Shown: piece after piece, positions 30,979 to 51,432 of the stretch
How the letters are laid out: each line of letters begins with the position of its first letter
Numbering within the stretch: the first letter of the stretch is position 1
From: a bacterium
GTDB lineage: Bacteria > Hinthialibacterota > Hinthialibacteria > Hinthialibacterales > Hinthialibacteraceae
Direction of reading: 5' to 3'
DNA: 64,000 nucleotides
Assembly: GCA_963663405.2 (NCBI GenBank)
Contig: CAXXSM010000022.1
Span: 1-64,000 of the forward strand
Program-made: the position numbers and the translations under genes
Notes under the pieces: model-generated
Databases searched by the model: none
What the model saw: the letters and a program-made list of their open reading frames with translations, nothing else
What the model was told of the DNA's origin: nothing

Positions 30979-31074
30979 GGAGGTGACGGGGGCCCGGTGG
31001 CTCCTGCGGTCTTCAAAACCGTTATGTCGCGTTGTCGCGTGATGGGTGGGTTCGACTCCCATTCACCTCCGCCA
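30979..31074 (+). tRNA. selC: tRNA-Sec (anticodon UCA)
   Basis: 8-bp acceptor GGAGGTGA/TCACCTCC, G discriminator + CCA, long D stem, anticodon loop CT-TCA-AA (TCA at 31013-31015), long variable arm, T arm GTGGG-TTCGACT-CCCAT; 96 nt; close to selA/selD. Confidence 0.96.
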
Positions 31075-33262: not shown

Positions 33263-33378
33263 TGTAAACGAACCACCCCGCTCAACCGTTGATTTTAAAA
33301 AGAGGATCAACGAAACTGAACGAGAAAAGGTGGGGCGTTCGGCGCCGCAAACAACAAATTAATCACATCAATAAAACA

Positions 33379-34749
33379 ATGAATAAATCACCTGATCCAC
33401 GAAGTCTGCTGCCTTCCGTCGATCGTGTCTTGAACAGCATGAGCGCGGCGCCGGATATGGAGCGTTTTTCCCATCAGCAAAAAGTTGACGCCACTCGGTT
33501 GGTTTTAAACCAGATGAGGGTGGATTGGAGCGGCGAGACAGGTCCATCCAGCGAAGAAATCGCTCAGAAAGCCGCGTCTCTCTTAAAAGCGCGGGACCGG
33601 TCCGGTATCCGGCGCGTCGTGAACGGCGCCGGAATCATTTTGCATACAGGCCTGGGCCGGGCCGTCGTTCCCCGCGAGGCGATGGACGCGATCGCGGAAC
33701 TGGATGGATACTGCAGCCTGCAGATCAATTTAGAAGATGGTTCACGCGGCCGGCGCGACGCTGTGATTGAGGAAATCTTACAAACGATAACAGGAGCTGA
33801 AGCGGCCACGGTGGTGAATAACAACGCGGCGGCGACGCTGCTTGTATTGGCGGCGTTATGCCAGGGGAAAGAACTGATCGTCTCGCGCGGGCAATTGATT
33901 GAGATCGGCGGCTCATTCCGCCTGCCTGATGTGATCGCGCAAAGCGGGACGGTGATGGTGGAGGTGGGAACGACCAATAAAACCCATCTGCGGGATTACG
34001 CCAACGCGATCACGGAAGAAACGCGCGTCCTGCTGCGCGTCAATCCGAGCAATTACCGCATCATCGGTTTCAGCCAATCCATCTCAACCGCTGAGCTGGT
34101 GACGTTGAAAGAAGGGCGGGATCTGATTGTCGTAGACGATCTTGGCTGTGGCGCGCTGGTTGATCTAAGCCTGTATGGACTGCCGAAAGAACCTACCGTG
34201 CAGGATAGTATCGCGGCGGGCGCGGACGTGGCGCTGTTCAGTGGGGATAAACTGATTAGCGGACCACAATCCGGGATTATTGTGGGTAAGAAAGAATACA
34301 TCGCCAAAATTCGGAAACATCCCTTAGCGAGGGCGATGCGGGTGGGTAAATTCACCATCGCGGCGCTGGAAGCGACTTTGAAATTGTTCCTCAATCCCGA
34401 TACATTGGTGGAAAACCATCCCACTTTACGCATGATCTCCATGAAACTTCCCACCTTGCGTCAGAAAGCGCAGTTTCTCGCGCAACGGCTTTCTTCCATT
34501 ATTCCATGCCAGGTCATCGAGGAACAAAGCGCCTGCGGGGGCGGCTCGCTGCCGGACTGCCCGCTCGATACCGCGGTTGTATCCATGCGTCATGAACGGC
34601 TGAATGCGGCTGAATTCGCGCAGCGCCTGCGCATGGGAGAGCCATCCATCATCACCCGCGTTCAGAATGAGGCTGTTCTGATTGATGTACGGACATTGCA
34701 GGATGGCGACGAAGAGCGAATTGAAGCCGCGATCAAAAAACTCAAATGA
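33379..34749 (+). CDS. selA: L-seryl-tRNA(Sec) selenium transferase
   Basis: LPSVD, VVNGAGIILHTGLGRA, VNNNAAA, SRGQLIEIGGSFRLPD, EVGTTNKTH, FSGDKL (PLP Lys). Confidence 0.97.
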   Translation: MNKSPDPRSLLPSVDRVLNSMSAAPDMERFSHQQKVDATRLVLNQMRVDWSGETGPSSEEIAQKAASLLKARDRSGIRRVVNGAGIILHTGLGRAVVPREAMDAIAELDGYCSLQINLEDGSRGRRDAVIEEILQTITGAEAATVVNNNAAATLLVLAALCQGKELIVSRGQLIEIGGSFRLPDVIAQSGTVMVEVGTTNKTHLRDYANAITEETRVLLRVNPSNYRIIGFSQSISTAELVTLKEGRDLIVVDDLGCGALVDLSLYGLPKEPTVQDSIAAGADVALFSGDKLISGPQSGIIVGKKEYIAKIRKHPLARAMRVGKFTIAALEATLKLFLNPDTLVENHPTLRMISMKLPTLRQKAQFLAQRLSSIIPCQVIEEQSACGGGSLPDCPLDTAVVSMRHERLNAAEFAQRLRMGEPSIITRVQNEAVLIDVRTLQDGDEERIEAAIKKLK

Positions 34750-34782: not shown

Positions 34783-35994
34783 ATGAATTCAGATTGCTCT
34801 GGAAATCCACCTCAACCACAACCATCCGAATGCTGTCAAACGAAGTCCACCTGCGCGCAAAGCCCGATAGCGCGTTTTGAAAACATGATCCCCAACGCGC
34901 TGGCGTTCGCGCAGGACGCCAAAGCCAAGGGGCAGAAAATCGCGGGGATCTTCTGTGAATATGCGCCGCGTGAATTGTTCTTCGCCGCCGGGATGGTTCC
35001 TATTTGCATGTGCGGAGGACAACAATCCACCATTCCCGAAGCGGAGACGGAACTTCCCAGCAATCTCTGTCCAGTGATTAAATCCAGCTATGGCCACCAT
35101 CTCAAAAAATCCAATCCTTTCTTGGAAATGTCCGATCTCATCGTCGCGGAAACGACATGCGACGGGAAGAAGAAAATGTATGAGTTGATGAGCCACGGCC
35201 GCAACATCCACGTCATGGAATTACCCCAAAAACCAGATGAACAAACCGCCTTCAATCATTGGCTCAACGAACTCCATCTTTTGAAAGAGAAGATCGAAGA
35301 AGTAACAGGAAAGACAATCGATCGGGAAGCGTTATTAAGCGCGATTGAGAGAATGAATGAAGAACGCGATCTGCGGCGGGAAATCGCCTATCTAGCCTCT
35401 GAGAATCCACCCTTGGTCACTGGCAAAGAAGCGCTGCTCGCGAAAAGCAGCGTCTCGCTGATCCCCTGTGACATAGCGGGATACAAGAAAATTCTCGAAT
35501 GGGCGAAAAACCGGCCCAGCCCCTACAATGGACAGCTCCGGATTTTAATGACAGGCGTTCCCCATCCGCACGGAGCCGAGAAAGTGATGGAGATCGTGGA
35601 GGAGTGTGGCGGCGCGATCGTCGCGCAGGAAAACTGCACAGGACTCAAACCGATCATGGACAACGTAGTTACCGACAGCGATCTAATGGAAAATCTCGCC
35701 CGGAAGTATTTTGATCTGCCCTGCTCCTGTATGACCCCCAATCAAGGACGAACCGATTTGCTCAACCGGCTTATAAATGATTTTAAACCGGATGGTATGA
35801 TCGATCTTGTTTGGCAGGCCTGTCATACCTACAACATCGAAGCGGAATTGATCCGCCGGGAAGCGCGGACACGCTGGAATCTTCCCTATCTGAAATTAGA
35901 AACCGATTATTCCCCCTCCGACCGGGCGCAGTTAACAGTGCGTGTGGAGGCGTTTTTGGAATTATGCCGGTCGAATGGATCGAAGAAATCTTGA
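34783..35994 (+). CDS. 2-hydroxyacyl-CoA dehydratase family / double-cubane cluster (DCCP-like) protein
   Basis: GIFCEY.P.E, CMCGG, NLCPVIKSSY, ETTCDGKKKMYE, ENCTG, CSCMTPN, QACHTYNIE, ETDYS. Confidence 0.85.
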   Translation: MNSDCSGNPPQPQPSECCQTKSTCAQSPIARFENMIPNALAFAQDAKAKGQKIAGIFCEYAPRELFFAAGMVPICMCGGQQSTIPEAETELPSNLCPVIKSSYGHHLKKSNPFLEMSDLIVAETTCDGKKKMYELMSHGRNIHVMELPQKPDEQTAFNHWLNELHLLKEKIEEVTGKTIDREALLSAIERMNEERDLRREIAYLASENPPLVTGKEALLAKSSVSLIPCDIAGYKKILEWAKNRPSPYNGQLRILMTGVPHPHGAEKVMEIVEECGGAIVAQENCTGLKPIMDNVVTDSDLMENLARKYFDLPCSCMTPNQGRTDLLNRLINDFKPDGMIDLVWQACHTYNIEAELIRREARTRWNLPYLKLETDYSPSDRAQLTVRVEAFLELCRSNGSKKS

Positions 35995-36188: not shown

Positions 36189-37841
36189 ATGCGGTTTCCT
36201 GAAAAACGTAAAACCATTATGGCGCGATCGATCGCGTTGGGGCATTGCGTCTGCAATCCGAAATTGAAATGCCCCTGCCCATCACTGATTAATGAAAACT
36301 TATGTCCCTGCGCGGGGGAACGGCGCGATCCCCCGAAAGGCCCGGTCCGTCTGACCGAATATGTGCGCAAGGTTGGCTGCGCGTCGAAAATCAATCACCG
36401 CGATCTGCATACCGTCTTGGCGCAGCTGCCCACATTTGACGATCCCCATGTAATCTTAGGTGTAGCGGCGGGCGATGACGCCGGTGTCTACGACATTGGC
36501 GGCGATTACAACATCGTTCAGACGGTTGACGTTTTCTCGCCGGTGATTGATGACGCGTATACGTTTGGGCAGATCTGCGCCGCCAATTCTGTCAGTGATA
36601 TTTACGCGATGGGAGGGCGGCCGGTCTGCGCGCTATCGATCATCGGCTTTCCCATTGAGGATCTGCCCCATGAGGTGATGGCCGAAATCCTGCGCGGCGG
36701 GATTGAGACGCTGCGGGAAGCGAATGTCAGCGTGATCGGCGGACACAGTATCAACGATGAAGAAATCAAAGGCGGCTTCGCAGTAACAGGATTGATCAAC
36801 GGCGGCGGAAGCGTAACGGTCAGCGGCGCGCGTCCAGGCGACCGGCTCGTTCTCACCAAACCTATTGGCACAGGCGTCATCGCTTTTGCCAACCAGATCG
36901 CCCGCGCGTCAGAAGACGCCCTTAAATTGATCGGTCAAATCATGGCCGGACTCAACAAAGACGCGGCGGAACTCATGATCGCGCATGGCGCGCATGCCTG
37001 CACCGACGTGACAGGCTTCAGCCTGTTAGGTCATCTTACCGAAATGACACGCCACAGCGGCGTGAGCGCCCGAATCGACACCGCCACCATACCATTCCTC
37101 GCCGAAGCGATCGGGGGCGCCCGGCAGGGAATCATTCCCGGCGCGATCGAACGCAACAAAGAAGCGTTCTCACAAGGCATTTCCACCGATGGCGAAGAGG
37201 ATGCGCTGCTCAATCTACTCTATGACGCTCAAACCTCCGGCGGTCTTTTAATCGCTTTGCCAGAAGAGGGAGTGGGGCCTTTTATCAAAGCGATGCGGTC
37301 ACGCGGTCATGAAGCGGTTTCGGAAATCGGAACCATCGTGGAACCAGAAGAATCACTCATTCATGTCACCCTTAACGAATCCACAAATCTCGTGGGTGTC
37401 TATCAAGAGATCCCCCCGAAAGAAAAACCGGAACCCATTCAACCCAGCGCCGAACCACTCGCCTGTTGTGAGAATCCTCCCAGCGCGGAGGTTAAAAAAT
37501 CCGTTACAGATAGCGCCTCAAAACCGTCCCTATCTATGGCGCTTGGATCTCCCTCCGCGGAGCAAACGGCATCCAGCGAAGCGTTTAAACAATTCATGAA
37601 AAGCGTCAATACGCCAGGGAGCCTCGATGCGCGGATGAAGCGGTTGTTGAACGTCGCCTTAGCCACAGCGCAGCGGTGCGAACAATGCCTGCAGATCCAT
37701 ATCGAACACGCGTTGTCTGAAGGGATCTCCCGCGGCGAGATCGATGAAGCCGCCTGGCTGGGTATTTCATTCGCTGGCGCCCCGGCGAAATTGTTCTACG
37801 AAGAAACATGGCGGGAATTGGATAGGAAAGATAAGTCATAA
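36189..37841 (+). CDS. selD: Selenophosphate synthetase (Cys-type) with N-terminal Cys-rich module and C-terminal AhpD/CMD-like domain
   Basis: LTEYVRKVGCASKI, DDAGVY, QTVDVFSPVIDD, AANSVSDIYAMGG, GGHSI, LTKPIGTG, TDVTGFSLLGHL, DAQTSGGLL. Confidence 0.95.
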   Translation: MRFPEKRKTIMARSIALGHCVCNPKLKCPCPSLINENLCPCAGERRDPPKGPVRLTEYVRKVGCASKINHRDLHTVLAQLPTFDDPHVILGVAAGDDAGVYDIGGDYNIVQTVDVFSPVIDDAYTFGQICAANSVSDIYAMGGRPVCALSIIGFPIEDLPHEVMAEILRGGIETLREANVSVIGGHSINDEEIKGGFAVTGLINGGGSVTVSGARPGDRLVLTKPIGTGVIAFANQIARASEDALKLIGQIMAGLNKDAAELMIAHGAHACTDVTGFSLLGHLTEMTRHSGVSARIDTATIPFLAEAIGGARQGIIPGAIERNKEAFSQGISTDGEEDALLNLLYDAQTSGGLLIALPEEGVGPFIKAMRSRGHEAVSEIGTIVEPEESLIHVTLNESTNLVGVYQEIPPKEKPEPIQPSAEPLACCENPPSAEVKKSVTDSASKPSLSMALGSPSAEQTASSEAFKQFMKSVNTPGSLDARMKRLLNVALATAQRCEQCLQIHIEHALSEGISRGEIDEAAWLGISFAGAPAKLFYEETWRELDRKDKS

Positions 37842-37971
37842 CTTGAAACTCAATCGCTCGATCCGTCGTATTAGTAAGAGTAAGGGCGGGCAAATCGATT
37901 TGAATGCCCCATTCCTGTTTGGGAATGATAAAACCAAGTGGTTACTCTTAAATCGAAATGGAGGAAAGCGG

Positions 37972-39849
37972 ATGTACAATCGAGTGAGTGTCTTGTATGT
38001 AATTACAGTTATGAGTTTTTGTCTTGCGGGTGGAGCCGTTCTCTTGATGGCGGCTTCGGATGTAGAAACAGTAACGATAGGGGCAACGGTTCCAGACATT
38101 GAAGCGGATAGTATTGAAGGGCTTCCAGTCTCTTTCCGTCCGCCGGAGGGAAAGATTCTGCTCGTTCAGTTTATGGATTCAAGCGCAGATCAAGCCGATG
38201 AATCCATCCGGGATCTAATCATTCTCTATGGACGTTTCCGTGAGAGCGGTTTACATCTTTTAAATGTGTTTATGGATACTAACGAGGATCAAGTCATCCG
38301 TTTTTCAACACGGTGGCAGGTCCCCTGGGCGCAGGTGTTGGACGCGGATATGGAAGGCGAAAGAGCCTCTCAAGTTTTCGGCGTTAAAGAATTCCCCTGC
38401 AATTTCCTGCTCGATTCAGATGGCAAGATTCTCGCATTAAATCTCACTGGAGAGAACGCGCACAACTTAATCGCCGAACAGCTGAACGTCTCACTCGATT
38501 CCCTGCCAATGCCCGAAGCGCCCACACCGATCTCCGAAGGAGGATCGAGCAACCGGGATGCGATAATCGCTACGGCGTCCCGCGTTCCAACAATTAATCT
38601 GCTGGGCACGAAACAAGAACGCGAAGAAGTGGAAGCCTGTAAAGAATACCTTCGGAAAATCAGCCTCGCTCTCACGGCTTACAAGCAGGATCATGATGGG
38701 GAGCCGCCGAATTGGCTTCACGAACTGTTTCCCAAATACCTCCAAGATGAGAAAATTCTTATATGCCCTTGCCCTTTGGCTAGATCCGTCCAGACACAAT
38801 TAAAACTCGATCCAGAGATGAGATGCAGTCATTTATACGAATTTGCTCCATCGGAATTGACCGGGGGAGAGTATTCATCCTATAGGGAATGGAAAAAATC
38901 TCAACTTAACCAGTTTGGAGACAAAACGCCTATTGTGCGTTGTCTGTACCATTCGAGACCTTTGAGTTTATCGTATGGAGGCGAAATCTATTTCAGTTCG
39001 CAGGTTTGGGAAAATGATTTTCCGCAGGGCTGCAGCATCCATGATCCTGACGCGAAAACTCGAAAAGCAATGATGGACATCGCGCTCGCGCTGGATCGAT
39101 ACAAGAAAGAGAATAACACGATACCAGATGAACTTAGGGATCTTTATCCGAAATACATCCGAAACGAGACATTTTACCTCTGTCCCAGCACTGAACAGCC
39201 ATTTTCCTATCAGTTTTCGAAAAAATCCGGTTTGCGGGAATGGAAAACAGAACAGCTAAAGATCTACGGCGGTTATGTGCCCATCGTCCGGGCTCGGGGG
39301 GTTCTTAGAAACGGGAATGTCATCAATCTGGCGTACAATGGCGAGATCTACGAAAGCCCCAGTGTTTGGGAGACTCTCTTCATTCGTGACAGAGCCGCGA
39401 TACTGAAATCAACGGCCGCCGATCGAAAAGCCATTTCCGCACAATCCCCAGAAATAAGCAAGGCGGAAATAGATATGCGTTCGTTATCGGTCGCGCTCGA
39501 ATCCTTTTTTATTGATAACAATACCTACCCTCTTCCACTAGAAGGGCAGTCCATCGACAAAGTAGGGATTAAAACCAGTTCCAGAACGATTCGTCTGACT
39601 ACACCCGTCCGGTACATCACTAAAATACCCAAAGATCCGTTTTCGAAAGAATCCGGTTACTACCATTATCACAGTGATGGGAAAAATTTTTACATTCTGG
39701 CCTCTGACGGCCCCGATCAGAAGCCGGATTTCGATGTGAAACAATACGATCCGGGCAAAGGTTCGAAGAAAAATGATCTCAAAACCTTTACCTACGATCC
39801 CTCAAACGGATTAAACAGCCGAGGTGACCTTTTCAAAGTAGGACCTTAA
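37972..39849 (+). CDS. Membrane-anchored protein: CxxC-less redoxin-like domain, two pseudopilin-like repeats, GspG-C-like domain (paralog 1)
   Basis: GGAGG RBS; IGATVPDI…GKILLVQF…FP.NFLLDSDGKI; C..YLRKI..AL..Y..DH.G..P..L..L.PKYL; TTPVRYI..IPKDPF…ASDGPD…YDPSNG..S.GD. Confidence 0.65.
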   Translation: MYNRVSVLYVITVMSFCLAGGAVLLMAASDVETVTIGATVPDIEADSIEGLPVSFRPPEGKILLVQFMDSSADQADESIRDLIILYGRFRESGLHLLNVFMDTNEDQVIRFSTRWQVPWAQVLDADMEGERASQVFGVKEFPCNFLLDSDGKILALNLTGENAHNLIAEQLNVSLDSLPMPEAPTPISEGGSSNRDAIIATASRVPTINLLGTKQEREEVEACKEYLRKISLALTAYKQDHDGEPPNWLHELFPKYLQDEKILICPCPLARSVQTQLKLDPEMRCSHLYEFAPSELTGGEYSSYREWKKSQLNQFGDKTPIVRCLYHSRPLSLSYGGEIYFSSQVWENDFPQGCSIHDPDAKTRKAMMDIALALDRYKKENNTIPDELRDLYPKYIRNETFYLCPSTEQPFSYQFSKKSGLREWKTEQLKIYGGYVPIVRARGVLRNGNVINLAYNGEIYESPSVWETLFIRDRAAILKSTAADRKAISAQSPEISKAEIDMRSLSVALESFFIDNNTYPLPLEGQSIDKVGIKTSSRTIRLTTPVRYITKIPKDPFSKESGYYHYHSDGKNFYILASDGPDQKPDFDVKQYDPGKGSKKNDLKTFTYDPSNGLNSRGDLFKVGP

Positions 39850-40263: not shown

Positions 40264-42174
40264 ATGAGTAAACGAATTAGTGTTTTTTATACGGTCACAG
40301 TTCTAAGTCTCTTTCTCTCAGGCGCCGCGGTTTTATTGATCTCGGCGCAGGATATGGAAACAGTATCCATTGGCTCAACGGTTCCCGATATTGAGGCCTA
40401 TAGTATTGAAGGGCTTCCGGTCTCTTTCCACCCACCGGAGGGAAAGATTCTTCTCGTTCAATTTATGAAATCAAGCGATGAACAGGCGGATGAATGCATC
40501 CGGGACCTAATCGTCCTTTATGGGCGTTTCCGGGAAAGTGGTTTGCTTTTATTGTGCGTGTTTATGGATACGGATGAAGACCAGGTAGTCCGTTTTTCAA
40601 CCCGATGGCAAGTCCCCTGGCCGCAGGTGTTGGACTCAGATGTGGATGAAGAGAGACCATCACAAGTTTTTGGTGTCAAAGAATTCCCTGCCAATTTCCT
40701 GCTTGATTCCACTGGAAAGATTCTTGCGTTGAATTTGACTGGTGAGAGCGCCCATAATGCGATCGCCGAACAACTGAATGTTTCCCTCGACTCTCTGCCG
40801 GTTCCTGAAGCGCCTTCCCCCATTTCCGAAGGAGGGCCGGGAAGCCGGAATGTGGTTATGACAACAGCTCCATCCGTTCCAAGCGTTCCAAAAGTGAATC
40901 TGCTGGGCACAAAAAAGGAGCGTGAAGAAGCGGAAGCCTGCAAAGAAAACCTCCGGAAAATCAGCCTTGCGATTACGGCCTACAAACAAGATCACAACGG
41001 GGAGCCGCCAAACTGGCTGCATGAACTGTTTCCTCAATACCTTCAGGATGAAAACGTTCTCTTATGTCCAAGCGATCCCACGCATGAAACCCGCTTTGCG
41101 TATTTGATCGATAAAAAAATGAAGTGCGGCTATTTATACGAATTCGCACCCGCCCCCAATTCGACGGGATGGAATAATCAGCCCTGGCGGGATTGGAAGA
41201 AATCTCAACTCCATGAGTATGGTGACAAAACGCCACTCGTCGGCTGTTATCATCATTCCCGCAAATTGAATCTATCGTATGGCGGAGAGATCTATTTCAG
41301 TTCCGAGGTCTGGGAAAATGATTTTCCACAGGGTAGCACAATCAATGATCCCGACGCAAAAACCCGGAAGAAACTGATGGACATCGCAGTTGCGCTGGAT
41401 CGATATAAAAAAGAGAAGAAAACCGTTCCCGATGAGCTGAAGGACCTTTATCCAAAATACATCCGAAACGAGACTTTTTACCTCTGCCCGGCCACTAATG
41501 AGTCCTTCTCCTATCAATTTTCGAAACAATCAGGATTGCGGGATTGGAAAAAAGAACAGTTGAAGATCTACGGCGGTTACGTGCCTATCGTCCGCGCGCG
41601 CGGAGCGCTTAAAAACGGGAACGTCATTAACTTGGCGTATAATGGGGAGATCTACGAAAGCCCCAGTGTCTGGGAGACTTTATTCATTCGTGACAGCGCC
41701 GCGATACCAAAAACGACGGCGGCTGATCGAAAAACCACTTCTACACGATCCACACGAACCATGGAAATTGCCCGCACGGAAGCGGAAATGCGCATATTAT
41801 CAAACGCGCTGGAATGTTTCTTCATCGATAACAATACATACCCATTTCCACTGGAAGGGCAAACGATCGATAAGGCCGGTATAAAAATCGGTTCCGGTTC
41901 GAGAGCGAGATATCTTCGCTTAACCACACCCGTCGCTTACATCTCAACAATACCCAAAGATCCATTCTCGAAAGAGTCCAACGCCTACCGCTATCACAGC
42001 GATGGGAAGAATTATTACATCCTGGCCTCTGACGGCCCGGACCGGAAAATCGATTTCGATCTGAAGAAATTTGATCTCAGCAAAGGATCAAAAAACGACG
42101 ATCTCACACCCTTTACCTATCATCCCTCGAATGGATTGACCAGCCAGGGGGATCTTTTCCGGGTTGGACCGTGA
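40264..42174 (+). CDS. Redoxin-like/pseudopilin-like multidomain protein (paralog 2)
   Basis: Colinear and highly similar to 37972-39849; ends TGA TAG. Confidence 0.7.
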   Translation: MSKRISVFYTVTVLSLFLSGAAVLLISAQDMETVSIGSTVPDIEAYSIEGLPVSFHPPEGKILLVQFMKSSDEQADECIRDLIVLYGRFRESGLLLLCVFMDTDEDQVVRFSTRWQVPWPQVLDSDVDEERPSQVFGVKEFPANFLLDSTGKILALNLTGESAHNAIAEQLNVSLDSLPVPEAPSPISEGGPGSRNVVMTTAPSVPSVPKVNLLGTKKEREEAEACKENLRKISLAITAYKQDHNGEPPNWLHELFPQYLQDENVLLCPSDPTHETRFAYLIDKKMKCGYLYEFAPAPNSTGWNNQPWRDWKKSQLHEYGDKTPLVGCYHHSRKLNLSYGGEIYFSSEVWENDFPQGSTINDPDAKTRKKLMDIAVALDRYKKEKKTVPDELKDLYPKYIRNETFYLCPATNESFSYQFSKQSGLRDWKKEQLKIYGGYVPIVRARGALKNGNVINLAYNGEIYESPSVWETLFIRDSAAIPKTTAADRKTTSTRSTRTMEIARTEAEMRILSNALECFFIDNNTYPFPLEGQTIDKAGIKIGSGSRARYLRLTTPVAYISTIPKDPFSKESNAYRYHSDGKNYYILASDGPDRKIDFDLKKFDLSKGSKNDDLTPFTYHPSNGLTSQGDLFRVGP

Positions 42175-42229: not shown

Positions 42230-44278
42230 GTGGTTTCTTACAGAACACTATTCATCCGGACGGCGGTCCTTCTTTTCCTAACCAATGGATTTTTTAGTTC
42301 AATGGAACTCTTTGGACAGGAAGGAAATTTGAAGGTGGGGGATATTTTCCCCGAATTTGATGTCGAGAGCATCGAAGGGCTTCCTATTTCCTTCCGTCCG
42401 CCGGATGGAAGTCTGTTACTGGTTATCATCTGGGATACCAATTCTCCACGGGCTGAAGACGCGGCCCGCGATACAATTGTTCTCTATAAACGGTTTCACG
42501 ATTCGGGATTCGATGTTGTTGGCATCTGTACCAATCTATCGGAAGGAGGTGTGGAGGAATTCTCCACACTCTGGACAATTCCCTGGCCCCAGGCGATGAA
42601 CGAGGATATCGAAGGGGCGGATACAACCGAACAACTCGGTATCCTCGAACTGCCCATCACGTATCTGCTCGATTCAGACGGGCGGATCCTCGCGATCTCA
42701 CCAAAGGGTGACCGGGCGCATGCGGCCATCGCCGGTTATCTTGGAGTATCACTCGACGATCTCCCCAAACCTGCGATGCCCGCAAAACGGACCAAACCAT
42801 CATTTGAACCGAGTGGAATGACACAAACACCTAGAGAAGGCGCGTATTCACTCTTGGGATCATTGGAAGAGCGTGAACGGGTAGAACCATGCCGGAGCAA
42901 TCTACGGCAAATTGGAATCGCGCTGACGAGTTATCAACTCGATCATGAAGGGGAATGGCCTAACTGGCTGTCGGACCTGTATCCAAAGTATCTGCAGGAT
43001 GAATCAATTCTGCTCTGCCCCAATCATCCCTCCGCCACTGTGTATCGGGGATTGATCGATCCCAAAATGAAATGCAGTTATGTCTACGAATTCGCGCCGA
43101 TTGAGTGGGATGGCGCCATTTACCGGGATATCCAAAAAGCGAAATTGGAAATCTATGGGGATAAAGTTCCCGTCGTGCGGTGCCTCAAATGCCTTGAAGA
43201 CGGGCGCGCGCTCAACTTGAGCTACGGCGGTGAGATCTATTTAAGCGGAGAGATTTGGGAAGACGATATGCCGACGGACAACGACCTCGAAGACGCCGCC
43301 TCCGAGATTCGTCAGCAGTTTCGCCAAATCGCCGCCGTCATCCATCGCTACAAGAAAGAACACGGGAAAATCCCGGATGAACTGGACACGCTTCATCCCG
43401 ATTACATCCCGGATGTAAAAACACTATCCAATCCCGTCACGGGTTGGATCTATTCCTATGAATTCAGCCCGAACATCCCCAATCCATATACGGAGGATGG
43501 TGAAACGCTTTTTGATTACCGGACGAAACAGATGGAAGAATTCGGCGGGTATGTGCCCATGATCCGCGCCGCGGGTATCCTCGACAAGCAGAATGTGATC
43601 AATCTGTCGTATCATGGAGAAGTCTGGCAAAGCACGATGAATTGGGAAGGAGATCTTCATTCCAGCACGGGACCAATGGTCTGGCTGCCAGGTGATCCAC
43701 CGGGAAAACAGATCGATCCCGATCATCAACTGGAAAACTGGCGCGGGAATGTGGCCAGAGGAACCATAACGATTCAAAAAGATGAGCAGATCCGCTCAAT
43801 CTGCGGCTCGTGGCAGATGGATAAGGAGATGATCCAGCAAACGGATATTCACGCCAAACCTGCGGCCTTGATCTTTGAACCGGTTATCGAAAAAGGAGAA
43901 ATCCGGCTTCGCGCCCGTGTAATGGATGGAAAGAACGGATTCCGGATTGTGTTTGGATACAAACCGACAGAAGAACACTACGCCTGGACCATCGGCGGAC
44001 AAGAGAACAAAGTCAACACATTGGATAAACGCTCTACCCTGCGGGAGATCAAATTTTACAATGTTCTGAATGATCCGGAGCCCTACAACGTCCAACAGAA
44101 AATTTGGTATACAATCCGTTTGCTAGTCGATGCGGATAAGCGCACAGTGGTAGGTTATCTGAACGGAGAGAAACGATTGTCTATTACACTGGAGGAAGAA
44201 ACGTTGAAAGGCCGGTTCGGCCTGACGGTCAATGAAACTATCGCCGAATTCGACCAGATTTCCATAACCGGAAAATAA
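42230..44278 (+). CDS. Redoxin-like/pseudopilin-like protein with a different C-terminal beta-sandwich (DUF1080-like) domain (paralog 3)
   Basis: Shares SIEGLPISFRPP, PITYLLDSDGRI, CRSNLRQIGIAL..Y..DH, LNLSYGGEIY; GTG start. Confidence 0.62.
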   Translation: MVSYRTLFIRTAVLLFLTNGFFSSMELFGQEGNLKVGDIFPEFDVESIEGLPISFRPPDGSLLLVIIWDTNSPRAEDAARDTIVLYKRFHDSGFDVVGICTNLSEGGVEEFSTLWTIPWPQAMNEDIEGADTTEQLGILELPITYLLDSDGRILAISPKGDRAHAAIAGYLGVSLDDLPKPAMPAKRTKPSFEPSGMTQTPREGAYSLLGSLEERERVEPCRSNLRQIGIALTSYQLDHEGEWPNWLSDLYPKYLQDESILLCPNHPSATVYRGLIDPKMKCSYVYEFAPIEWDGAIYRDIQKAKLEIYGDKVPVVRCLKCLEDGRALNLSYGGEIYLSGEIWEDDMPTDNDLEDAASEIRQQFRQIAAVIHRYKKEHGKIPDELDTLHPDYIPDVKTLSNPVTGWIYSYEFSPNIPNPYTEDGETLFDYRTKQMEEFGGYVPMIRAAGILDKQNVINLSYHGEVWQSTMNWEGDLHSSTGPMVWLPGDPPGKQIDPDHQLENWRGNVARGTITIQKDEQIRSICGSWQMDKEMIQQTDIHAKPAALIFEPVIEKGEIRLRARVMDGKNGFRIVFGYKPTEEHYAWTIGGQENKVNTLDKRSTLREIKFYNVLNDPEPYNVQQKIWYTIRLLVDADKRTVVGYLNGEKRLSITLEEETLKGRFGLTVNETIAEFDQISITGK

Positions 44279-44422
44279 CCGAATTTGTTAGACAAGGAAC
44301 ATAAAAACTGTTATAGACGACGAATAATGGCGCAGATTAAAAAGGAGTGTATAATAGGCTGGAGAAAAGATCGATTCTATCCTATTTACACCGTTAATAT
44401 TTTCGAAAGGAGGACAAAGCCT

Positions 44423-45949
44423 ATGAAGTGTGCCAAGTCTTCCCTCCTGGGATTGGTTTTCATCGCCGCCTCCGCGTTTCTCTTCGCGGATACCGCCTCC
44501 GCGGTTTCCTGCAAACTGGAGTTGAAACGGCTTGAAGATAAATCTTCAATGGTACGGAGCGCGCAGGATGAGGACTATATCCTGCGGAGGGTAAGCAGAC
44601 AGTACTTTTCATGGCGTCCGGACCGGGATACCATTCCCGAATTTACAAACGCTGTGAAAAAAGAACCGCCGAAGTATGAGTATGAAAATCCTTACAAAGG
44701 CGTGATGACGTTGGGTTCCGATAAATACTTATTTGTATTGGATTCGAGCGATATCAACACGAAAGGATTTCATAAACTCTACTTCGACCGCAATCTCAAC
44801 GGCGATTTGACGGATGATTCCGTCATTGAAGCCATGGCGCTGCCAACCGGCGTTAACTTCGGCCCCGGCTCGATGCGCCGGGAATTTCCCCGGCAGGACC
44901 TGATGGTGAACGTGGATGGCAAGAAGCATGATTATTCGGTCTTTTTCGAAGCCTATTCCGACACACGGGATGGAGGAAATCTTCGGTACGCCTACACGCA
45001 AGCCGGCGCCGGCGCCTATCGCAAGGGAGAAGTGGAATTGGAGGGCAAAACGCATTCCATTTTCCTGCTCGATTTCAACAGCAACGGCCGTTTTGACGAT
45101 GTGACGACTGTAAACGAAAATGTCCAATACAGCAATGGCCGGATTTATCCTTCGCAGGGCGACCGGATCTTGCTTGATTTTAGCGCGCAGAACACCGATC
45201 CCTCGTATTACAATCTGACGGGCCGTAAAGACCGTGTGCCTGTCGCCAAACTGGTTTTCGTGAATGGGAAGTATTACGAGATGACGGTCTCTCCCTCCGG
45301 AGATTCCATCGAACTCACCCCATCCACAACGCCAACCGGTTCGATTGAGAACTCGAACGATGTGTTTGACGTCGCCCTTTACAACAAAGAGGGCGTGCTC
45401 AAACTGAACGGCAAGAAAGGCGACAAAATTTCTGTGCCGGAAGGTGAATGGAAGCTGCTCGAATATACGATCGATCTAACCGACTCCTCCAACACATCTG
45501 GACGGCAAGGCTGGACTTTGATCGCCGCTTCCGGAACGAAGAATTGCCCAACCGTGAAAGTAGAGAAAGGGAAAACCGTTGAATTTCCCTTCGGCAGCCC
45601 CTTCAAACCTCTCGTTCAGACGCAGCCCATGGGCCGCTCGAACGGTCAGGTGGAACAAGTGCGGCTGAGTCTGGAATTTACAGACTGTTCCGGCGCGATC
45701 TGCACGAATCTCTACGTCAACGGAAACCGCCCTCCCGATCCCACCTTCGCGATCGCCACACCCAGCAATGAAATCGTGGAGCGCGGCAAGTTTGAATATG
45801 GCTGAGGCTTTACCTGTTCGTACACATGGCGTGTACCTTCTAAACTGCAAGATGAATACCGCGTCCATGTCCGCATGAATGCAGGACCTTTCAAAGTCGA
45901 TAAAAAAGCATACAGCGTGATCAAATCATCAACACTGAAAGGATTGTAA
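44423..45949 (+). CDS. Putative secreted selenoprotein, paralog 1 (508 aa; Sec461 at TGA 45803-45805; FEYG-U-GFTC)
   Basis: AGGAGG RBS, signal peptide; the frame continues past TGA as GFTCSYTWRVPSKLQDEYRVHVRMNAGPFKVDKKAYSVIKSSTLKGL-TAA; SECIS-like hairpin; lies between selD and selB. Confidence 0.88.
45820..45836 (+). promoter_or_regulatory. Putative bacterial SECIS hairpin (paralog 1)
   Basis: GTACAC-ATGGC-GTGTAC starting after a 14-nt spacer from the UGA. Confidence 0.8.
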
Positions 45950-45992
45950 GCGCCTCTTTCAGCAGGACTTACCTATGCGCGGAATAATCATA

Positions 45993-46021
45993 ACGGGGCG
46001 GGACTTGAAATCCCGCCCCGT
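45993..46021 (+). terminator. Terminator-like hairpin
   Basis: ACGGGGCGGGA/TCCCGCCCCGT stem 44 nt after the read-through stop; weak T tail. Confidence 0.65.
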
Positions 46022-46120
46022 GTTCTCTCACAGGTGAGGAAATATGGTATTAGGGAAAGACGAAATACCAACCGAATCCAAATCGAAAAGTCAATTCGAT
46101 AGAAAGGACGGTTAGAGATT

Positions 46121-47650
46121 ATGAACTCCTGCAAGCGTTCCCTCTTTGGATTCGTTCTCATCCTTGGCGCCCTGTTTCTCATCCTTGATCCCGCACACGG
46201 TGCGACCTTCAAACTGGAGTTGAAACGGTTTGAAGATAAATCTTCACTCATACTAAGTAATGAAGAGGAAAGAATTCTTCAAAAAGTAAAAACCCAGTAT
46301 TTACCGTGGGATCAAGAGCGTTCTATGACACCGGCTTTCATAAAAGCCGTAAAAAAAGAACCCACTGTATATGAATCGAATACACTGTACAGAGGTGTGA
46401 TCCAATTCGGATCGGATCAATATGGTTTTGTATTGGATTCAAGCAATATCAAAAGGGAAGGTTTCAACAAACTCTATTTCGACCGCAATCTCAATGGCGA
46501 TTTGACGGACGATCCCATTATCGAAGCCAAGGCTTTGCCAAAAGGCGTACATTTTGGTTCTGGTATAATACTGCGGGAATTTCCCCGTCAGGATCTTACG
46601 GTGAACGTAGGAGGGAAATCGTACGATTATTCATTCTTTTTGACTGTATCATCCGATGAACGAGGTCCAATCCGGGGATCGCTGCAACACGCCCGCGCCT
46701 ACATCACCCCCGGCGCCTATCGCATGGGGAAAGTCGTATTGAATGGCAAAACGCATTCCATTTGCCTGCTTGATTTCAACAGCAACGGCCGTTTTGATGA
46801 TGTTACGGTAATACATGATAGAGTCAATAAAAGAACTAGCCGGATTTATTACACGCCTGGGGACCGGCTTCTACTCGATTTCAACCCGAAGAACGCCGAT
46901 CCTTCCTATTACAATCTGACGGGACGCGAAGACCGGGTTCCCGTTGCCAAGTTACTGTTCGTGGACGGGAAATATTATGAGATGACGGTCTCTCCATCGG
47001 GAGATTCTATCGAACTTATCCCCTCCACGGCGCCCACCGGTTTTATTCAGAACTCAAACGAAGTGTATGACGCCGCTCTCTACGGCGATCAGGGGATTCT
47101 CAAATTGACAGGGAAAAAAGGCGATCGAATTCCCATCCCGGCAGGAGAATGGAAACTATTGGAATATACGATTGATCTGACCGATCCAGAGAAAAGATTC
47201 CGGATCCCACACGCTTTGACGCTGATCTCCGCTGCAGGGACAAAGAACTGTCCATCGGTAAAAGTAGAGAAAGGTAAAACCGTCGAATTCCCATTTGGCG
47301 GCCCCTATAAACCTCTCGTCCAGGTGAGTTCTGTCGGTTTTGGAACAGCCATCCCCCAAGCGCGGTTGAGTCTGGCATTCACGGACTGCGCCGGCGCGAT
47401 TTGTACGAATCTATATGTAAAAGGAAACCGGCCGCCCAATCCATCGTTTACAATCGCTACGCCTAGCAATGAAATCGTGGAGCGCGGCAAGTTTGAATAT
47501 GGCTGAGGCTTCACCTGCGCGTACATATGGAATGTACCATTAAAACTTCATGATGAATACCACTTCCATGTCCAAATGAAAGCGGGACCATTTGAAGTCG
47601 ATAAAAATTCATACAGCGTGATTAAATCCTCAATGCTGAAAAGGAAGTAG
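46121..47650 (+). CDS. Putative secreted selenoprotein, paralog 2 (509 aa; Sec462 at TGA 47504-47506)
   Basis: Continues as GFTCAYIWNVPLKLHDEYHFHVQMKAGPFEVDKNSYSVIKSSMLKRK-TAG. Confidence 0.86.
47521..47537 (+). promoter_or_regulatory. Putative bacterial SECIS hairpin (paralog 2, compensatory U-A pair)
   Basis: GTACAT-ATGGA-ATGTAC at the same spacing. Confidence 0.8.
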
Positions 47651-47817
47651 GTTTCTATTTCATGAAGAGGAAACAATGCAAGTATTACTCAAATGGGACT
47701 CAATTTTAATTCCCATTACATCTCCACCCTCAGGCAGGAGAGTATATAATAGGAAAGGTCATACAACCAGCCGTTCCTATCGAAACATCAATCCAATCGA
47801 AAGGATGGTAAAAATTC

Positions 47818-49347
47818 ATGAAGTTCGGCAAACGAATCTTTTTAGGATTCTTTCTCCTTCTCGTCGCTGCGTTTCTCTTCACGGATACTGCGAACGCAGT
47901 GACCTGTAAATTGGAATTGAAACGGTTTGAAGACAAATCATCAATGTATGAGACCGCTGGAGATGAAGAACCAATCCTGCGGAGAGTGAGAGGGCAGTAC
48001 CTGCGATGGCGGCGAGATCAGGCCACGACGGCGGATTTCGTCGAAGCCGTTAAAAAAGAACCGAAGTATGAGTCAGATATCCTGTACCGGGGTGTGATTA
48101 CCTTAGGTTCGGATCAATACGGTTTCGCGTTAGATTCAAGCGATATCATAAAAAATGGATTTCACAAATTCTATTTCGACCGCAATCAAAATGGTGATCT
48201 GACAGACGACGCCGTCATCGAAGCCATGCCATTGCCAAAAGGCGTCAACTTCGGTCCCGGCTTTATGCAACGCGAATTCCCCCGGCAGGACATGACAGTT
48301 AACACCGATGGCAAGAAGTATGATTATTCATTCTTCTTACTTGTGTATTCCGACACGCAGGGACAATCCGATGGATCACTGCGATACGCCTCCGCGCAGC
48401 TCAGCACAGGCGTGTATCGAAAAGGGGAAGTGGAACTCGACGGCCAACAACATACCATTCACTTGCTCGATTTCAATTGCAACGGCCGTTTCGATGATTC
48501 AACCACAATACGCGACGATATCCGGAACGATAATGGACGGATCTATCAAACACACGGCGATCGAATCATGCTTGATTTCAATGTTGAAAACGCCGATCCC
48601 GCGTATTACAATCTGACGGGACGGAAAGACCGTCTCCCCGTTGAAAAACTGTTATTCGTCAATGGGAAATATTATGATCTGACGGTTTCTCCATCGGGCG
48701 AATCTCTTGAATTCACTCCATCCAAGGCGCCACTCGGTTCGATTCAAAACAAGAACGAAGTGTTTGAATTCGCCCTCTACAACGATCAGAGTGTGCTCAA
48801 ACTGTCTGGCAAGAAAGACGATCCAATTCCCATCCCAGAAGGGGAATGGAAACTGCTTGAATACACAATCAATCTCACCGATCCAGCAAAAAGTTCCCAG
48901 GGCCGGCGATCGTGGACATTGCTCTCCGCCGCAGGGACCACGAACTGCAAACCGGTGAAAGTGGAGAAAGGGAAAACAGTTGAATTCCCCTTTGGCGGTC
49001 CCTACAAACCTCTAGTGCGGGTAAATCCGATGGGTTCAAACAACCAAGTGGATCAAGCGCGAGTAAGTCTAGAATTTATTGACAATGTAAGCGCGATCTG
49101 CACCAATCTCTACGTCAACGGAGACCGGCCGCCTGATCCAACTTTCGTCATCGCCACGCCCAATAATGAAATCGTGGAGCGCGGCAAGTTTGAATATGGC
49201 TGAGGCTTTACCTGTTCGTACACATGGCGTGTACCGACAAAACTTGAAGATGAATACCGTGTTCACGTTCGCATGAAAGCAGGGCCTTTTGAAGTTGATA
49301 AAAAAGCCTATAGCGTTATCAAACCTTCGATGCTTAAATTCAACTAA
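47818..49347 (+). CDS. Putative secreted selenoprotein, paralog 3 (509 aa; Sec462 at TGA 49201-49203)
   Basis: Continues as GFTCSYTWRVPTKLEDEYRVHVRMKAGPFEVDKKAYSVIKPSMLKFN-TAA. Confidence 0.88.
49218..49234 (+). promoter_or_regulatory. Putative bacterial SECIS hairpin (paralog 3)
   Basis: GTACAC-ATGGC-GTGTAC, extendable by TGTT/GACA below a C-C mismatch. Confidence 0.8.
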
Positions 49348-49385
49348 GTTCTTATTTCATAAGGACCAAGCTATACGCGTGTAAC

Positions 49386-49422
49386 AAAACGGGGCGGGAT
49401 TGAAAATCCCACCCCGTTTTTT
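49386..49422 (+). terminator. Rho-independent terminator
   Basis: AAAACGGGGCGGGATT-GAA-AATCCCACCCCGTTTTTT; homologous to 45993-46021. Confidence 0.8.
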
Positions 49423-49478
49423 AATCCGAATGAAAAACCGGCGAATAGAATCCTTCCCACAGGAGAATTCTCAAAACG

Positions 49479-51432
49479 ATGAAAACAGGCAAACGAAAAC
49501 CATTCAAACCTGCCCGCAATCTCCCCCCACCCCTCAACGTCACCATTGGTGTGGCCGGTCATATTGATCATGGGAAGACCGAATTGGTGAAAATGTTAAC
49601 CGGCTGCGACACCGACCGGTTGAAGGAGGAAAAAGAACGGGGCATGTCCATCGAACTGGGATACGCGCCCCTGTCATGTCGGCGCCAACCGGGTGGGGAT
49701 CGTGGATGTGCCGGGTCATGAGCGTTTTATCCGCAACATGGTCGCCGGGGCCACCGGGATGGACATCACGTTGCTGGTCATCGCCGCTGATGACGGCGTG
49801 ATGCCGCAAACTCGCGAGCATCTCGATATCGCGCAACTCCTTGGCGTTCAGCGTGTGATCACAGCGATTACGAAAACCGATCTCGTCTCCCCGGATCGGA
49901 TTGAAGAAGTCCGGCGGCAAATTGAAACATTCTTAGAAGCGACCCGGTACGCAGGGGCTTCTATCACTCCCTGTTCATCCGTAACCGGTGAAGGATTGAC
50001 TGAACTGCGTCAACAGATGGACGCGGCGGTTCAAGCTGTCGAACGGAAAAAAACCAGTGGAATGTTCCGGCTGCCAATTGACCGGATCTTCACTTCCGAG
50101 GGGCATGGTGTTGTCGTTACGGGTATCGCGATTTCCGGCAGCGTGAAAGCCGGTGAGATGGTAGACCTGCTTCCATCTGGAAAAACCGGCCGTGTGCGCA
50201 GTTTGCAGGTTTATCTCGGCGATGCGGAAGAAGGCATCGCCGGACAATGTGTGGCGCTCAACTTGACGCAAATCGGAAAGGACGAATTCACACGCGGCGA
50301 CGTTCTCGCATCTCCAGGACGGTTCTCCGCTTATTATCGTTTTACCGCGCGGGTGCAATCTTCGCTCTTTTTAGAATCTCCGCTGCGGAATTCCGCCCGG
50401 ATCCGATTTCATACGGGAACATCGGAAACACGGGGAAAATTGCGGCTGATGAACGATGACTCCCTCGAACCGGGTCAAGAGACATTCGCTCAGATCGAGT
50501 TGGATGAACTCGTTCCTGCGTTTCTTCACGACCGGTTCATCATCCGGCTGGAATCGCCGCCCCGCACCGTCGCGGGTGGAACCATAATCGAATGCGGAGG
50601 TTTTCGCCGTAAACGTTTTCATGAGCCTGTTTTGCGTCAACTGCGGAATCGCTGGGACGCGTTATGTAATAATACCAAGTTAATTGAGATTCTGCTTGAA
50701 GAGACGCCGTTCCACTCTCAATCGATCGAAGAACTCGCGAAAGCGATAGGCGTCCCCAATTCTGAAGCGCAACAGTTGGTTCAAACGATTATCCAGAAAC
50801 AGAACGCGATCACGTTGAAAGAGAACCGTATTGTCTCATCTTCAGGATTGCGGAAAGCCGCTAATTATACGCTGGACACGTTGAAAAAACTGCACACCGC
50901 CCATCCCACCCGCTTTGCGTTTACAAAAGACGAAATCCGCGCCGGGATGCAAGAAGGTGAGGACCTGATTGACCCGGCTCTCGCGCGGCTTCTTAATGAA
51001 CACCGCGCGATTCTCTCCGGCTCTTCATACCGTGACGCCGAAGCGGTTGACGCGGATCCCCAAACGCTCGCGCTGGCGAAGCAAATCGAACGTCTTCTCT
51101 TCGAAGAGAAATTTAAAACTTCCTCCCCCGCGCAACTGGCGGAGAAACTGAGACGCCCTGTGGCCGCCATCGAATCCACATTCAAATATCTTGTTGAAAA
51201 AGGCGCCGCGATCCGGCTGGCAGAAACGGTCTATTTGCACAACAAGCATGTGGAATGGGCGAAAGAACAACTTATCAAAGCCATTCAACGGGATGGATTT
51301 TTTGAAACGCACCTTTTCAAAACCGTCATCGGAAGCAGCCGGAAATACGCGATCCCCCTATTGGATCATTTCGACGCCACGGGAGTCACCCGCCGCATTG
51401 GCGGCAAGCGTTATTTACAAGAGAAGAAATAA
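49479..51432 (+). CDS. selB: Selenocysteine-specific elongation factor SelB; one apparent +1 indel in the C run at 49668-49671
   Basis: [66 protein letters not shown]-terminal [17 protein letters not shown] winged helix. Confidence 0.93.

Follow-up and report, generated by a model that had tools for sequence, protein, structure and literature searches.

The stretch analysed here (hereafter the window) comprises 64,000 nucleotides, positions 1 to 64,000 on the forward strand of contig CAXXSM010000022.1 (assembly GCA_963663405.2, lineage Hinthialibacterota), and belongs to contig C22 of an 8.44-Mb genome (G000; 170 contigs, 82% complete). It carries three tandem paralogous genes, each with a single in-frame UGA, and just 3' of each UGA lies a short RNA hairpin that we regard, with a probability of roughly 0.9, as a bacterial SECIS (selenocysteine insertion sequence) serving a selenoprotein family that has no matching Pfam or NCBIfam model. 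The genes, their putative selenocysteine (Sec, U) codons and the hairpins are located as follows:

44420..45949, plus strand: paralog 1 of the new family, translated with TGA as U; likely start MKCAKSS..., reading through the UGA at 45803 to a TAA stop
46121..47650, plus strand: paralog 2, 509 amino acids counting U462
47818..49347, plus strand: paralog 3, 509 amino acids counting U462, with one in-frame TGA and a predicted N-terminal signal-like helix
45803-45805, plus strand: putative Sec-UGA of paralog 1 (direct reading), motif KFEYG-U-GFTC
47504-47506, plus strand: putative Sec-UGA of paralog 2 (direct reading and translation)
49201-49203, plus strand: putative Sec-UGA of paralog 3 (direct reading and translation)
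45820..45836, plus strand: candidate SECIS hairpin of paralog 1, GUACAC-AUGGC-GUGUAC, 14 nt past the UGA, encoding (S)-Y-T-W-R-V-(P)
47521..47537, plus strand: candidate SECIS hairpin of paralog 2, GUACAU-AUGGA-AUGUAC, with a U-A loop-closing pair and the codons Ile and Asn
49218..49234, plus strand: candidate SECIS hairpin of paralog 3, GUACAC-AUGGC-GUGUAC

With TGA read as U, each paralog yields a protein of about 509 amino acids that has a hydrophobic N-terminal signal-like segment and a single U, the latter embedded in the motif KFEYG-U-GFTC(S/A)Y(T/I)W(R/N)VP and followed by 47 codons to the stop. The three proteins (P0001-P0003) are 65-69% identical (69% for paralog 1 versus 3), and none of them matched a family of Pfam-A 2025 or NCBIfam r20 at E <= 0.01. 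Direct reading of the sequence agrees with an earlier note on this DNA, which had placed a UGA, a 14-nt spacer, a 6-bp stem and a 5-nt loop at these positions in all three paralogs, and had pointed out that in paralog 2 the closing pair changes from C-G to U-A together with Thr to Ile and Arg to Asn, the stem being kept; the codons change from ACA to ATA and from CGT to AAT. The spacer, which the same note had called identical, is constant in length only: its sequence in paralog 2 differs from that in paralogs 1 and 3 at 3 of the 14 positions (GGCTTCACCTGCGC against GGCTTTACCTGTTC). As for the SECIS interpretation proposed there, it gains support from the presence of the UGA in every homologous context, from the stem recovered by RNAalifold, from the constraint on codon choice and from the sel genes alongside.

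Of the 120 matches listed by a search of 5.8 billion proteins, 114 have F-x-[YFW]-G as their very last residues and are thus annotated as stopping at the UGA, and the other 6 are fragments or have a different end; none of the 120 exceeds 91% query coverage and none has a Cys at the site. An exhaustive search of cluster representatives returned 1136 proteins at E <= 1e-3, with 107 of the 119 newly listed ones ending at the motif. At the DNA level, a whole-genome search recovered UGA-containing copies in 9 of 61 related genomes (G000 counted; the window's phylum is represented by 35 species genomes in the collection searched), and 74 further loci came from records labelled mostly as metagenome-assembled genomes (MAGs) of Planctomycetota (Pirellulales, Thermoguttaceae, Planctomycetaceae and Phycisphaerae). 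From 175 loci we drew the distinct 150-nt stretches bearing the motif [FWYLIVM]x[YFWDH]G-[U/C]-GxxC; after removal of exact duplicates and of stretches with less than 60 nt upstream or less than 90 nt downstream to the end of the locus, 141 contexts were left, and all 141 have UGA and none a Cys codon. The in-frame tail of about 47 codons past the UGA is kept as protein across two phyla, and 48 aligned C-terminal domains show invariant Y, W, V, P, P and F residues beyond the U.

A true stop at the UGA, with the hairpin acting in a regulatory or terminator-like capacity and the downstream frame left untranslated or forming a separate small gene, would accord with the fact that all databases end the genes there and that TGA is a common, ordinary stop in this genome (ending 1322 of the 3494 open frames of at least 300 codons). 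We consider it very improbable nonetheless, as the protein-level conservation of the tail in two phyla speaks against it, and so do the alignment of the tail with the C-terminus of full-length Cys-form homologs (Cys opposite U), the AlphaFold2 prediction, in which the tail and the residues preceding the UGA form one beta-sandwich (predicted local distance difference test, pLDDT, 91), the lack of a U-run past the stem within the 40 nt after the UGA in each context, and the adjacent Sec machinery. Full-length non-Sec homologs are few, and the Cys forms are rare: in homolog P0206 a Cys aligns with U462 (P0213 is similar), so a Sec/Cys pair exists, and a single full-length gene without the stop was found among 301 genomes of one order, while a metagenome scan for non-Sec homologs returned that same sequence again. 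A match in genome G009 (contig C66), tried as a Sec gene on account of its one TGA, was rejected, being a Cys-form gene whose TGA ends it in the normal way. From a metatranscriptomic library (run X4), contigs that are 90-95% alike span positions 44413-45925 and represent a relative's copy of paralog 1 with UGA and tail; they document its presence in that relative only and, as contigs, are no proof of transcription or read-through.

Selection on the hairpin is best seen among the homologs. For the first 104 contexts, aligned without gaps (alignment A3), RNAalifold returned exactly the 6-bp stem and nothing else, with changes on both sides in 5 of the 6 pairs and no second conserved helix in the 45 nt 3' of the UGA. 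The pair counts over all 104 rows (A3 column numbers) are:

Columns 31/45: U-A 90, U-G 7, C-G 3, unpaired 4
Columns 32/44: A-U 96, G-U 3, G-C 1, unpaired 4
Columns 33/43: C-G 100, U-A 4
Columns 34/42: U-A 91, A-U 9, C-G 3, U-G 1
Columns 35/41: C-G 96, U-A 8

The covariation score (computed on an 8-pair version of the structure) was 0.158, as compared to a mean of 0.093 for shuffled alignments (0 of 500 shuffles reach the observed value) and to 0.018-0.108 when the partners were slid. The stem, on whose conservation among homologs the earlier note had staked its proposal, forms all six pairs in 133 of the 141 contexts. The remaining eight comprise four members of a distant subfamily (see below), two contexts (L029 and L122) with one terminal or internal mismatch, and two (L129 and L172) in which a register-shifted hairpin persists with a 4-nt and a 3-nt loop, respectively. 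The loop reads R-U-G-G-C in most relatives (GUGGC in 116 of 141) and AUGGC or AUGGA in the window. A FastTree phylogeny of 121 genes, computed from the upstream part of the protein and without the hairpin codons, requires at least 21 changes of the stem state; it omits 20 of the 141 contexts, whose upstream part was shorter than 200 codons or duplicated another at the protein level.

The codons of the two arms switch in concert, according to the peptide they encode:

YTWRV: ACA paired with CGU
YSWRV: UCR paired with CGA
YPWRV: CCG paired with CGG
YLWQV: UUG paired with CAA, or CUG with CAG
H-x-W-x-V: CAC paired with GUG
CSWRA: UGC paired with GCA

Synonymous swaps within the stem involve Arg (CGU/CGA/CGG), Val (GUA/GUG), Leu (UUG/CUG) and Gln (CAA/CAG), and double amino-acid swaps turn Thr/Arg into Ile/Asn, Ser/Arg into Leu/Gln and Tyr/Val into Cys/Ala; since codon pairs switch across the arms, pairing is kept either by a synonymous change in one arm or by two amino-acid changes, paralog 2 of the window being an example of the latter. 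As a control for codon usage, the amino acids were held fixed and the seven codons redrawn from each gene's own usage (mean of 534 codons per gene, with pooled pseudocounts). All six pairs would then be expected in 7.0 of the 141 contexts (observed 133), Val would be encoded by GUA in 8.9 (observed 124), the codon before Tyr would end in G in 46.7 (observed 139) and the first loop base would be a purine in 59.5 (observed 137); the third positions of conserved codons nearby, such as that of the Gly before the UGA, vary freely. These figures bear on the possibility that the inverted repeat is a mere by-product of the peptide Y-x-W-x-V-P and of codon bias, with no selection on RNA. Such an origin is in keeping with the invariance of Y, W, V and P in the family, with the occurrence of Y-x-W-x-[VL]-P also in non-Sec homologs (P0142, P0203, P0206, P0213 and P0215) and with the loop UGG being simply the Trp codon; it is nevertheless exceedingly improbable in view of the resampling (both the paired stems and the excess of the rare Val codon GUA), of synonymous partners that switch with the opposite arm (ACA/CGU, UCR/CGA, CCG/CGG, CUG/CAG), of the free third position of the Gly codon before the UGA, and of the sole Cys-form homolog found as DNA (L075 = L109 = L116), which has no clean hairpin of this kind (4 of the 6 positions can pair, wobbles included).

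The comparison shows that the stem is kept by selection on the sense-strand RNA. A G·U pair occurs in nine of the 133 stems with full pairing; read on the opposite strand it would be an A-C mismatch, and this argues for sense-strand RNA rather than a DNA palindrome. That the repeat is a palindrome acting at the DNA level (bound by a protein), or that gene conversion between the tandem copies produced it as an artefact, is the least probable of the explanations considered: the GTAC...GTAC ends are palindromic and a 44-nt block around the UGA is identical in the three paralogs, but the G·U pairs contradict the former, and a stem that covaries in genomes of two phyla lies beyond the reach of conversion among three copies. 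The 44-nt block (45767-45810, 47468-47511 and 49165-49208; alignment columns 65-108) consists of 36 nt 5' of the UGA, the UGA itself and 5 nt 3' of it. Its identity amid proteins that are 65-69% identical suggests gene conversion or an additional constraint 5' of the UGA; in other genomes this stretch shows variation at synonymous sites.

We compared the hairpin with the bacterial SECIS (bSECIS) model used by bSECISearch, which, as summarised in PMC13188914 (Fig. 2), has a loop of 3-9 nt, a stem of 4-16 bp, a G within the first two loop positions, a UGA-to-loop distance of 16-37 nt and a minimum free energy (MFE) of at most -7.5 kcal/mol. The 5-nt loop and 6-bp stem lie within range in all three paralogs and in 104 homologs, as does the UGA-to-loop distance of 20 nt (14-nt spacer plus 6-nt arm), which is invariant in the 137 main-family contexts save for the register shifts of L129 and L172. 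Folding of the UGA plus 60 nt with RNAfold, as the earlier note had suggested, gave, for each of the three paralogs, an MFE and a centroid structure containing the 6-bp stem, with MFEs of -9.1, -8.1 and -11.0 kcal/mol for paralogs 1, 2 and 3 (i.e. at or below -8.1 kcal/mol and thus under the limit of the model), and with centroids (-6.9, -6.6 and -10.2) that hold little beyond the hairpin. As to the rule on the G, the outcome turns on the way the loop is drawn: the GUGGC loop of most homologs has a G at position 1 (G1-C5 pairing would give a UGG triloop), and the window loops would conform only if their positions 1 and 5 formed a closing non-canonical pair around a UGG triloop. In the Escherichia coli fdhF element (PMC8659212), a 17-nt upper stem-loop (nt 15-31) follows the UGA after an 11-nt spacer, has U17 bulged out and presents G23 and U24 in its loop. 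The likeness lies in a 17-nt coding-region hairpin just 3' of the Sec-UGA, with G in the apical loop (essential in fdhF), to which SelB presumably binds in both cases by its C-terminal domain. Unlike fdhF, the window hairpins have a 14-nt spacer, a stem that starts at nt 18 and lacks a bulge, Gs at nt 26-27 (one codon further out), and a loop N-U-G-G-N without a G-U step.

The earlier note had further proposed that the element could serve as a search pattern for other selenoproteins of the lineage. In its literal form (TGA, 8-21 nt, stem of at least 6 bp, N-TGG-N loop) the pattern gave 322 raw matches in G000, 48 of them with open frames; only the three paralogs were clearly coding, a site on contig C118 ranking next. 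The idea thus holds good, in that it recovers the paralogs and a new C118 gene, but the loop motif needs relaxing, as its literal form misses two TlpA-like genes. A refined pattern (TGA, 13-15 nt, 6 bp with at most one G-U, NNGGN loop) gave 74 raw matches, 18 with open frames, and the six highest coding scores belonged to the three paralogs and to genes on contigs C76, C118 and C117; a relaxed scan returned the same six, plus an unverified site on contig C148 ranked among them. The background is low, which speaks against chance: of the 323,058 TGA triplets on both strands, 421 are followed at spacer 14 by a 6-bp stem (with at most one G-U) and a 5-nt loop, and 26 of these have an NNGGN loop; the rate is flat over spacers 8-21. 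The C76 and C117 genes, which a family search had found independently of the pattern, are the two UGA-containing AhpC/TSA (ResA/TlpA-like) genes among the 18 matches to PF00578 in this genome. The three additional genes are:

G000:C76:130799-131500, plus strand: candidate selenoprotein gene 'FRAG-U-PAC' (GUPAC); hairpin GGAGAU-AGGGA-GUCUCC, 14 nt after the UGA
G000:C117:12748-13095, minus strand: candidate selenoprotein gene 'AWW-U-LYC' (WULYC); hairpin GCAACU-CAGGG-AGUUGC, 14 nt after the UGA
G000:C118:151038-151310 (L210:339-611), minus strand: candidate selenoprotein, a predicted 91-aa membrane protein ...FILRPG-U-GSPIRYLGGI...

In the C76 and C117 genes the U stands first in the CxxC motif, one being fused to DUF2092 and the other to DsbD_N, and in an ortholog of the C76 gene from another genome (52% identical) the hairpin is unchanged while the spacer carries synonymous changes. 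The C118 gene, found by the pattern scan, has its hairpin 13 nt after the UGA; its 91-aa product has no match in Pfam or NCBIfam. The gene occurs in 4 of the 35 genomes of the phylum (G000 included), with homologs that have one in-frame TGA in G020 (two copies), G001 and G012, and the hairpins of this family (GGUACC-UUGGC-GGUAUC versus AUCCC-UUGGC-GGGAU and AUCCC-UGGGC-GGGAU) include an A-U to C-G swap brought about by a synonymous change of a Gly codon. The genes appear to share one rule, namely that 13-14 nt separate the UGA from a stem of 5-7 bp, whose pentaloop has GG as its third and fourth bases (NNGGN); the 'AUGG' loop is family-specific because its UGG is the Trp codon of the new family. 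As this layout is common to at least three other UGA genes, it would describe the target of the lineage's SelB, and NNGGN is most likely what that protein recognises. The targeted check for selenoproteins in G000 covered PF00384, PF00578, PF00255, PF13905, PF00085, PF02627 and AIRS (the last through the window's own selD), i.e. seven Pfam families, and therefore genes with a different SECIS could have been missed; generic coding-potential screens for read-through TGAs were too noisy (2194 and 551 candidates, mostly spurious). The shared layout also bears on the idea that the stem is a selected RNA structure with another purpose (ribosome pausing or mRNA stability), the SelB-binding element lying elsewhere. 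Although the binding of SelB to the hairpin is something that we infer, and although the window loops depart from the published position of the G, we judge this alternative improbable: RNAalifold gave no further conserved helix in the 45 nt after the UGA, a hairpin with a GG loop occurs at this spacing in three unrelated UGA genes of G000, and spacing and size fall within the published bSECIS ranges (PMC13188914).

The paralogs are part of a Sec island, as the complete Sec set (tRNA-Sec, selA, selB and selD) is encoded inside the window:

30979..31074, plus strand: tRNA-Sec, anticodon TCA (ARAGORN)
31232-33262: 676-aa open reading frame between tRNA-Sec and selA, without a Pfam or NCBIfam match
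33289..34749, plus strand: selA, L-seryl-tRNA(Sec) selenium transferase (Pfam SelA, E = 4e-137)
34783-35994: homolog of a double-cubane-cluster anaerobic reductase (NF040772), between selA and selD
36189..37841, plus strand: selD fused to a C-terminal AhpD/CMD-like domain (Pfam AIRS, AIRS_C and CMD; NCBIfam TIGR00476)
37744-39849, 40264-42174 and 42230-44278, plus strand: three ResA/TlpA-like thiol-disulfide oxidoreductase genes directly upstream of the paralogs, two of them with a GspG-like part
49479..51432, plus strand: selB, Sec-specific elongation factor (Pfam GTP_EFTU, Beta-barrel_SelB and SelB-wing_3), directly downstream of the paralogs

The association is not confined to the window: family genes have selB next to them at loci of G012 and G017 as well as in L022 and L062, and they are accompanied by TlpA-like genes in 4 genomes belonging to the window's phylum and at 2 further loci. 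That TGA is an ordinary stop elsewhere in the genome also speaks for the Sec reading.

Beyond the main type, variants of the family were observed. A divergent paralog type in Thermoguttaceae-labelled MAGs (L027:2621-2680, L028:2576-2635, L039:2582-2641 and L057:2525-2584) reads ...ALQYG-U-G[IP]ACR[YC]SRRVP, with Arg replacing Trp, and has the same stem with a GCGUC or GCGGC loop. A subtype with FEYG-U-GG[VT]C..SWRVP and another tail (...G.GPL.) sits next to main-type copies within its loci and has the hairpin in common with them (L037:199-258, L041:4012-4071, L057:5367-5426, L069:101-160 and L093:1328-1387). The distant subfamily (L011, L017, L019 and L020) consists of longer open frames (approximately 550-710 aa) with the motif FEYG-U-GGTCxASVRMP.

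Several points weigh against the interpretation of the hairpin as a SECIS. The folding energies of the three 63-nt segments are no better than those of dinucleotide shuffles (z-scores 0.98, 0.13 and 0.09; 172, 105 and 97 of 200 shuffles reach the same or a lower energy), and a single-sequence fold therefore proves nothing. A cmscan of positions 44000-50000 against Rfam release 15 gave, at E <= 10, three hits at chance level and none to a SECIS, and the AUGGC and AUGGA loops have their Gs at positions 3-4, against the first-two-positions rule of the bSECIS consensus (PMC13188914). The distant subfamily (G-U-GGTCxASVRMP, n = 4) fits a bulged stem only, a possible GGCUUC-CGUGC-GAA(U)GCC at the same 14-nt distance, and the hairpin region is identical in all four sequences, so a covariation test is impossible there. 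The Cys-form natural control amounts to one sequence (n = 1), the count of 21 stem changes depends on the FastTree topology, and the compared sequences are related, so sequence counts overstate independent events. In the assembly, the CCCC run at 49668-49671 carries a 1-nt frameshift that interrupts selB. The gene is intact in a close relative's contig obtained in another study (run X2), which is one base shorter at 49668 and differs at 20 further places over 2.1 kb, and the contigs of the best-matching run break at 49669/49670 with a depth of 2; the frameshift thus probably arose in assembly, and would at most be a lesion at strain level. Finally, the basis for the putative SelB binding and Sec insertion at the UGA is comparative throughout.

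The AlphaFold2 model of paralog 3 is all-beta (pLDDT 88.9; predicted template modelling score, pTM, 0.86) and puts U462 between two strands of the last domain, an Ig-like beta-sandwich that folds by itself with a pLDDT of 91.2. A Foldseek search with the whole model gave no convincing match (TM <= 0.15 normalised by query length), and structure searches with the C-terminal domain returned only generic Ig-like, macroglobulin and FN3-like beta-sandwiches (VIA Z <= 8.2, which the tool rates as common; Foldseek E >= 1.4e-3). With the thioredoxin-fold (TlpA/ResA/Prx-like) UxxC selenoproteins, whose C76 and C117 representatives use the same hairpin layout, the new family has in common a nearby Cys (U-x-x-x-C) and a seemingly extracytoplasmic location; it differs from them in its predicted lack of a thioredoxin fold (the Sec being modelled in a loop of the C-terminal beta-sandwich) and in that Cys forms are the exception in it and not the rule. 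Our guess, made because of the signal-like N-terminus and the recurring TlpA-like neighbours, is that the U-x-x-x-C site acts outside the cytoplasm in redox chemistry or in the handling of metals. No description of the family turned up in a literature search that included the accessible text of PMC13188914 (no 'UxxxC' or 'Planctomycet') and of PMC12013277, and whose scope excluded the deep-Sep supplementary tables and the primary papers behind the review's table; Table S9 of PMC4807772 lists, without a sequence, one unnamed 'hypothetical' selenoprotein candidate in a planctomycete.

By analogy with E. coli, and given the adjacent selB with its C-terminal winged-helix, we would expect SelB-GTP-Sec-tRNA(Sec) to dock on the apical loop as the ribosome nears; with the UGA in the A site, the tethered complex would deliver Sec in competition with the release factor, whereupon the ribosome would melt the hairpin, translate S/A-Y-T-W-R-V-P and then add about 40 more residues. 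Going further, and with rather more doubt than confidence, we suggest that the SelB of this phylum and that of the Planctomycetota sharing the family may have a recognition mode unlike that of E. coli, directed at an apical N-G-G on an unbulged stem of 5-7 bp placed one codon further out, with neither a G-U step nor a bulged U. The protein so served would be an almost obligately Sec-containing, secreted beta-sandwich with a G-U-G-x-x-C site, possibly partnered with the adjacent TlpA-like oxidoreductases. If this is true, UGA-N13/14-stem-NNGGN would be a lineage-specific selenoprotein finder, which has already yielded one new membrane family.

On the preferred reading of the hairpin as a SECIS, more than 100 database entries ('hypothetical protein' or unnamed) would be about 47 residues short, ending at the Sec codon; the family is widespread in Planctomycetota-type MAGs. 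Because the element sits inside the conserved motif Y-x-W-x-V-P, the RNA element and the protein motif co-evolve in the same 17 nucleotides, with compensation through synonymous codons or paired amino-acid replacements. Moreover, the 13-14 nt spacing and the GG loop found in four unrelated gene families would amount to a simple SECIS rule for the lineage, and this rule may provide a handle on the variation of SelB-SECIS recognition beyond the E. coli and Moorella models.

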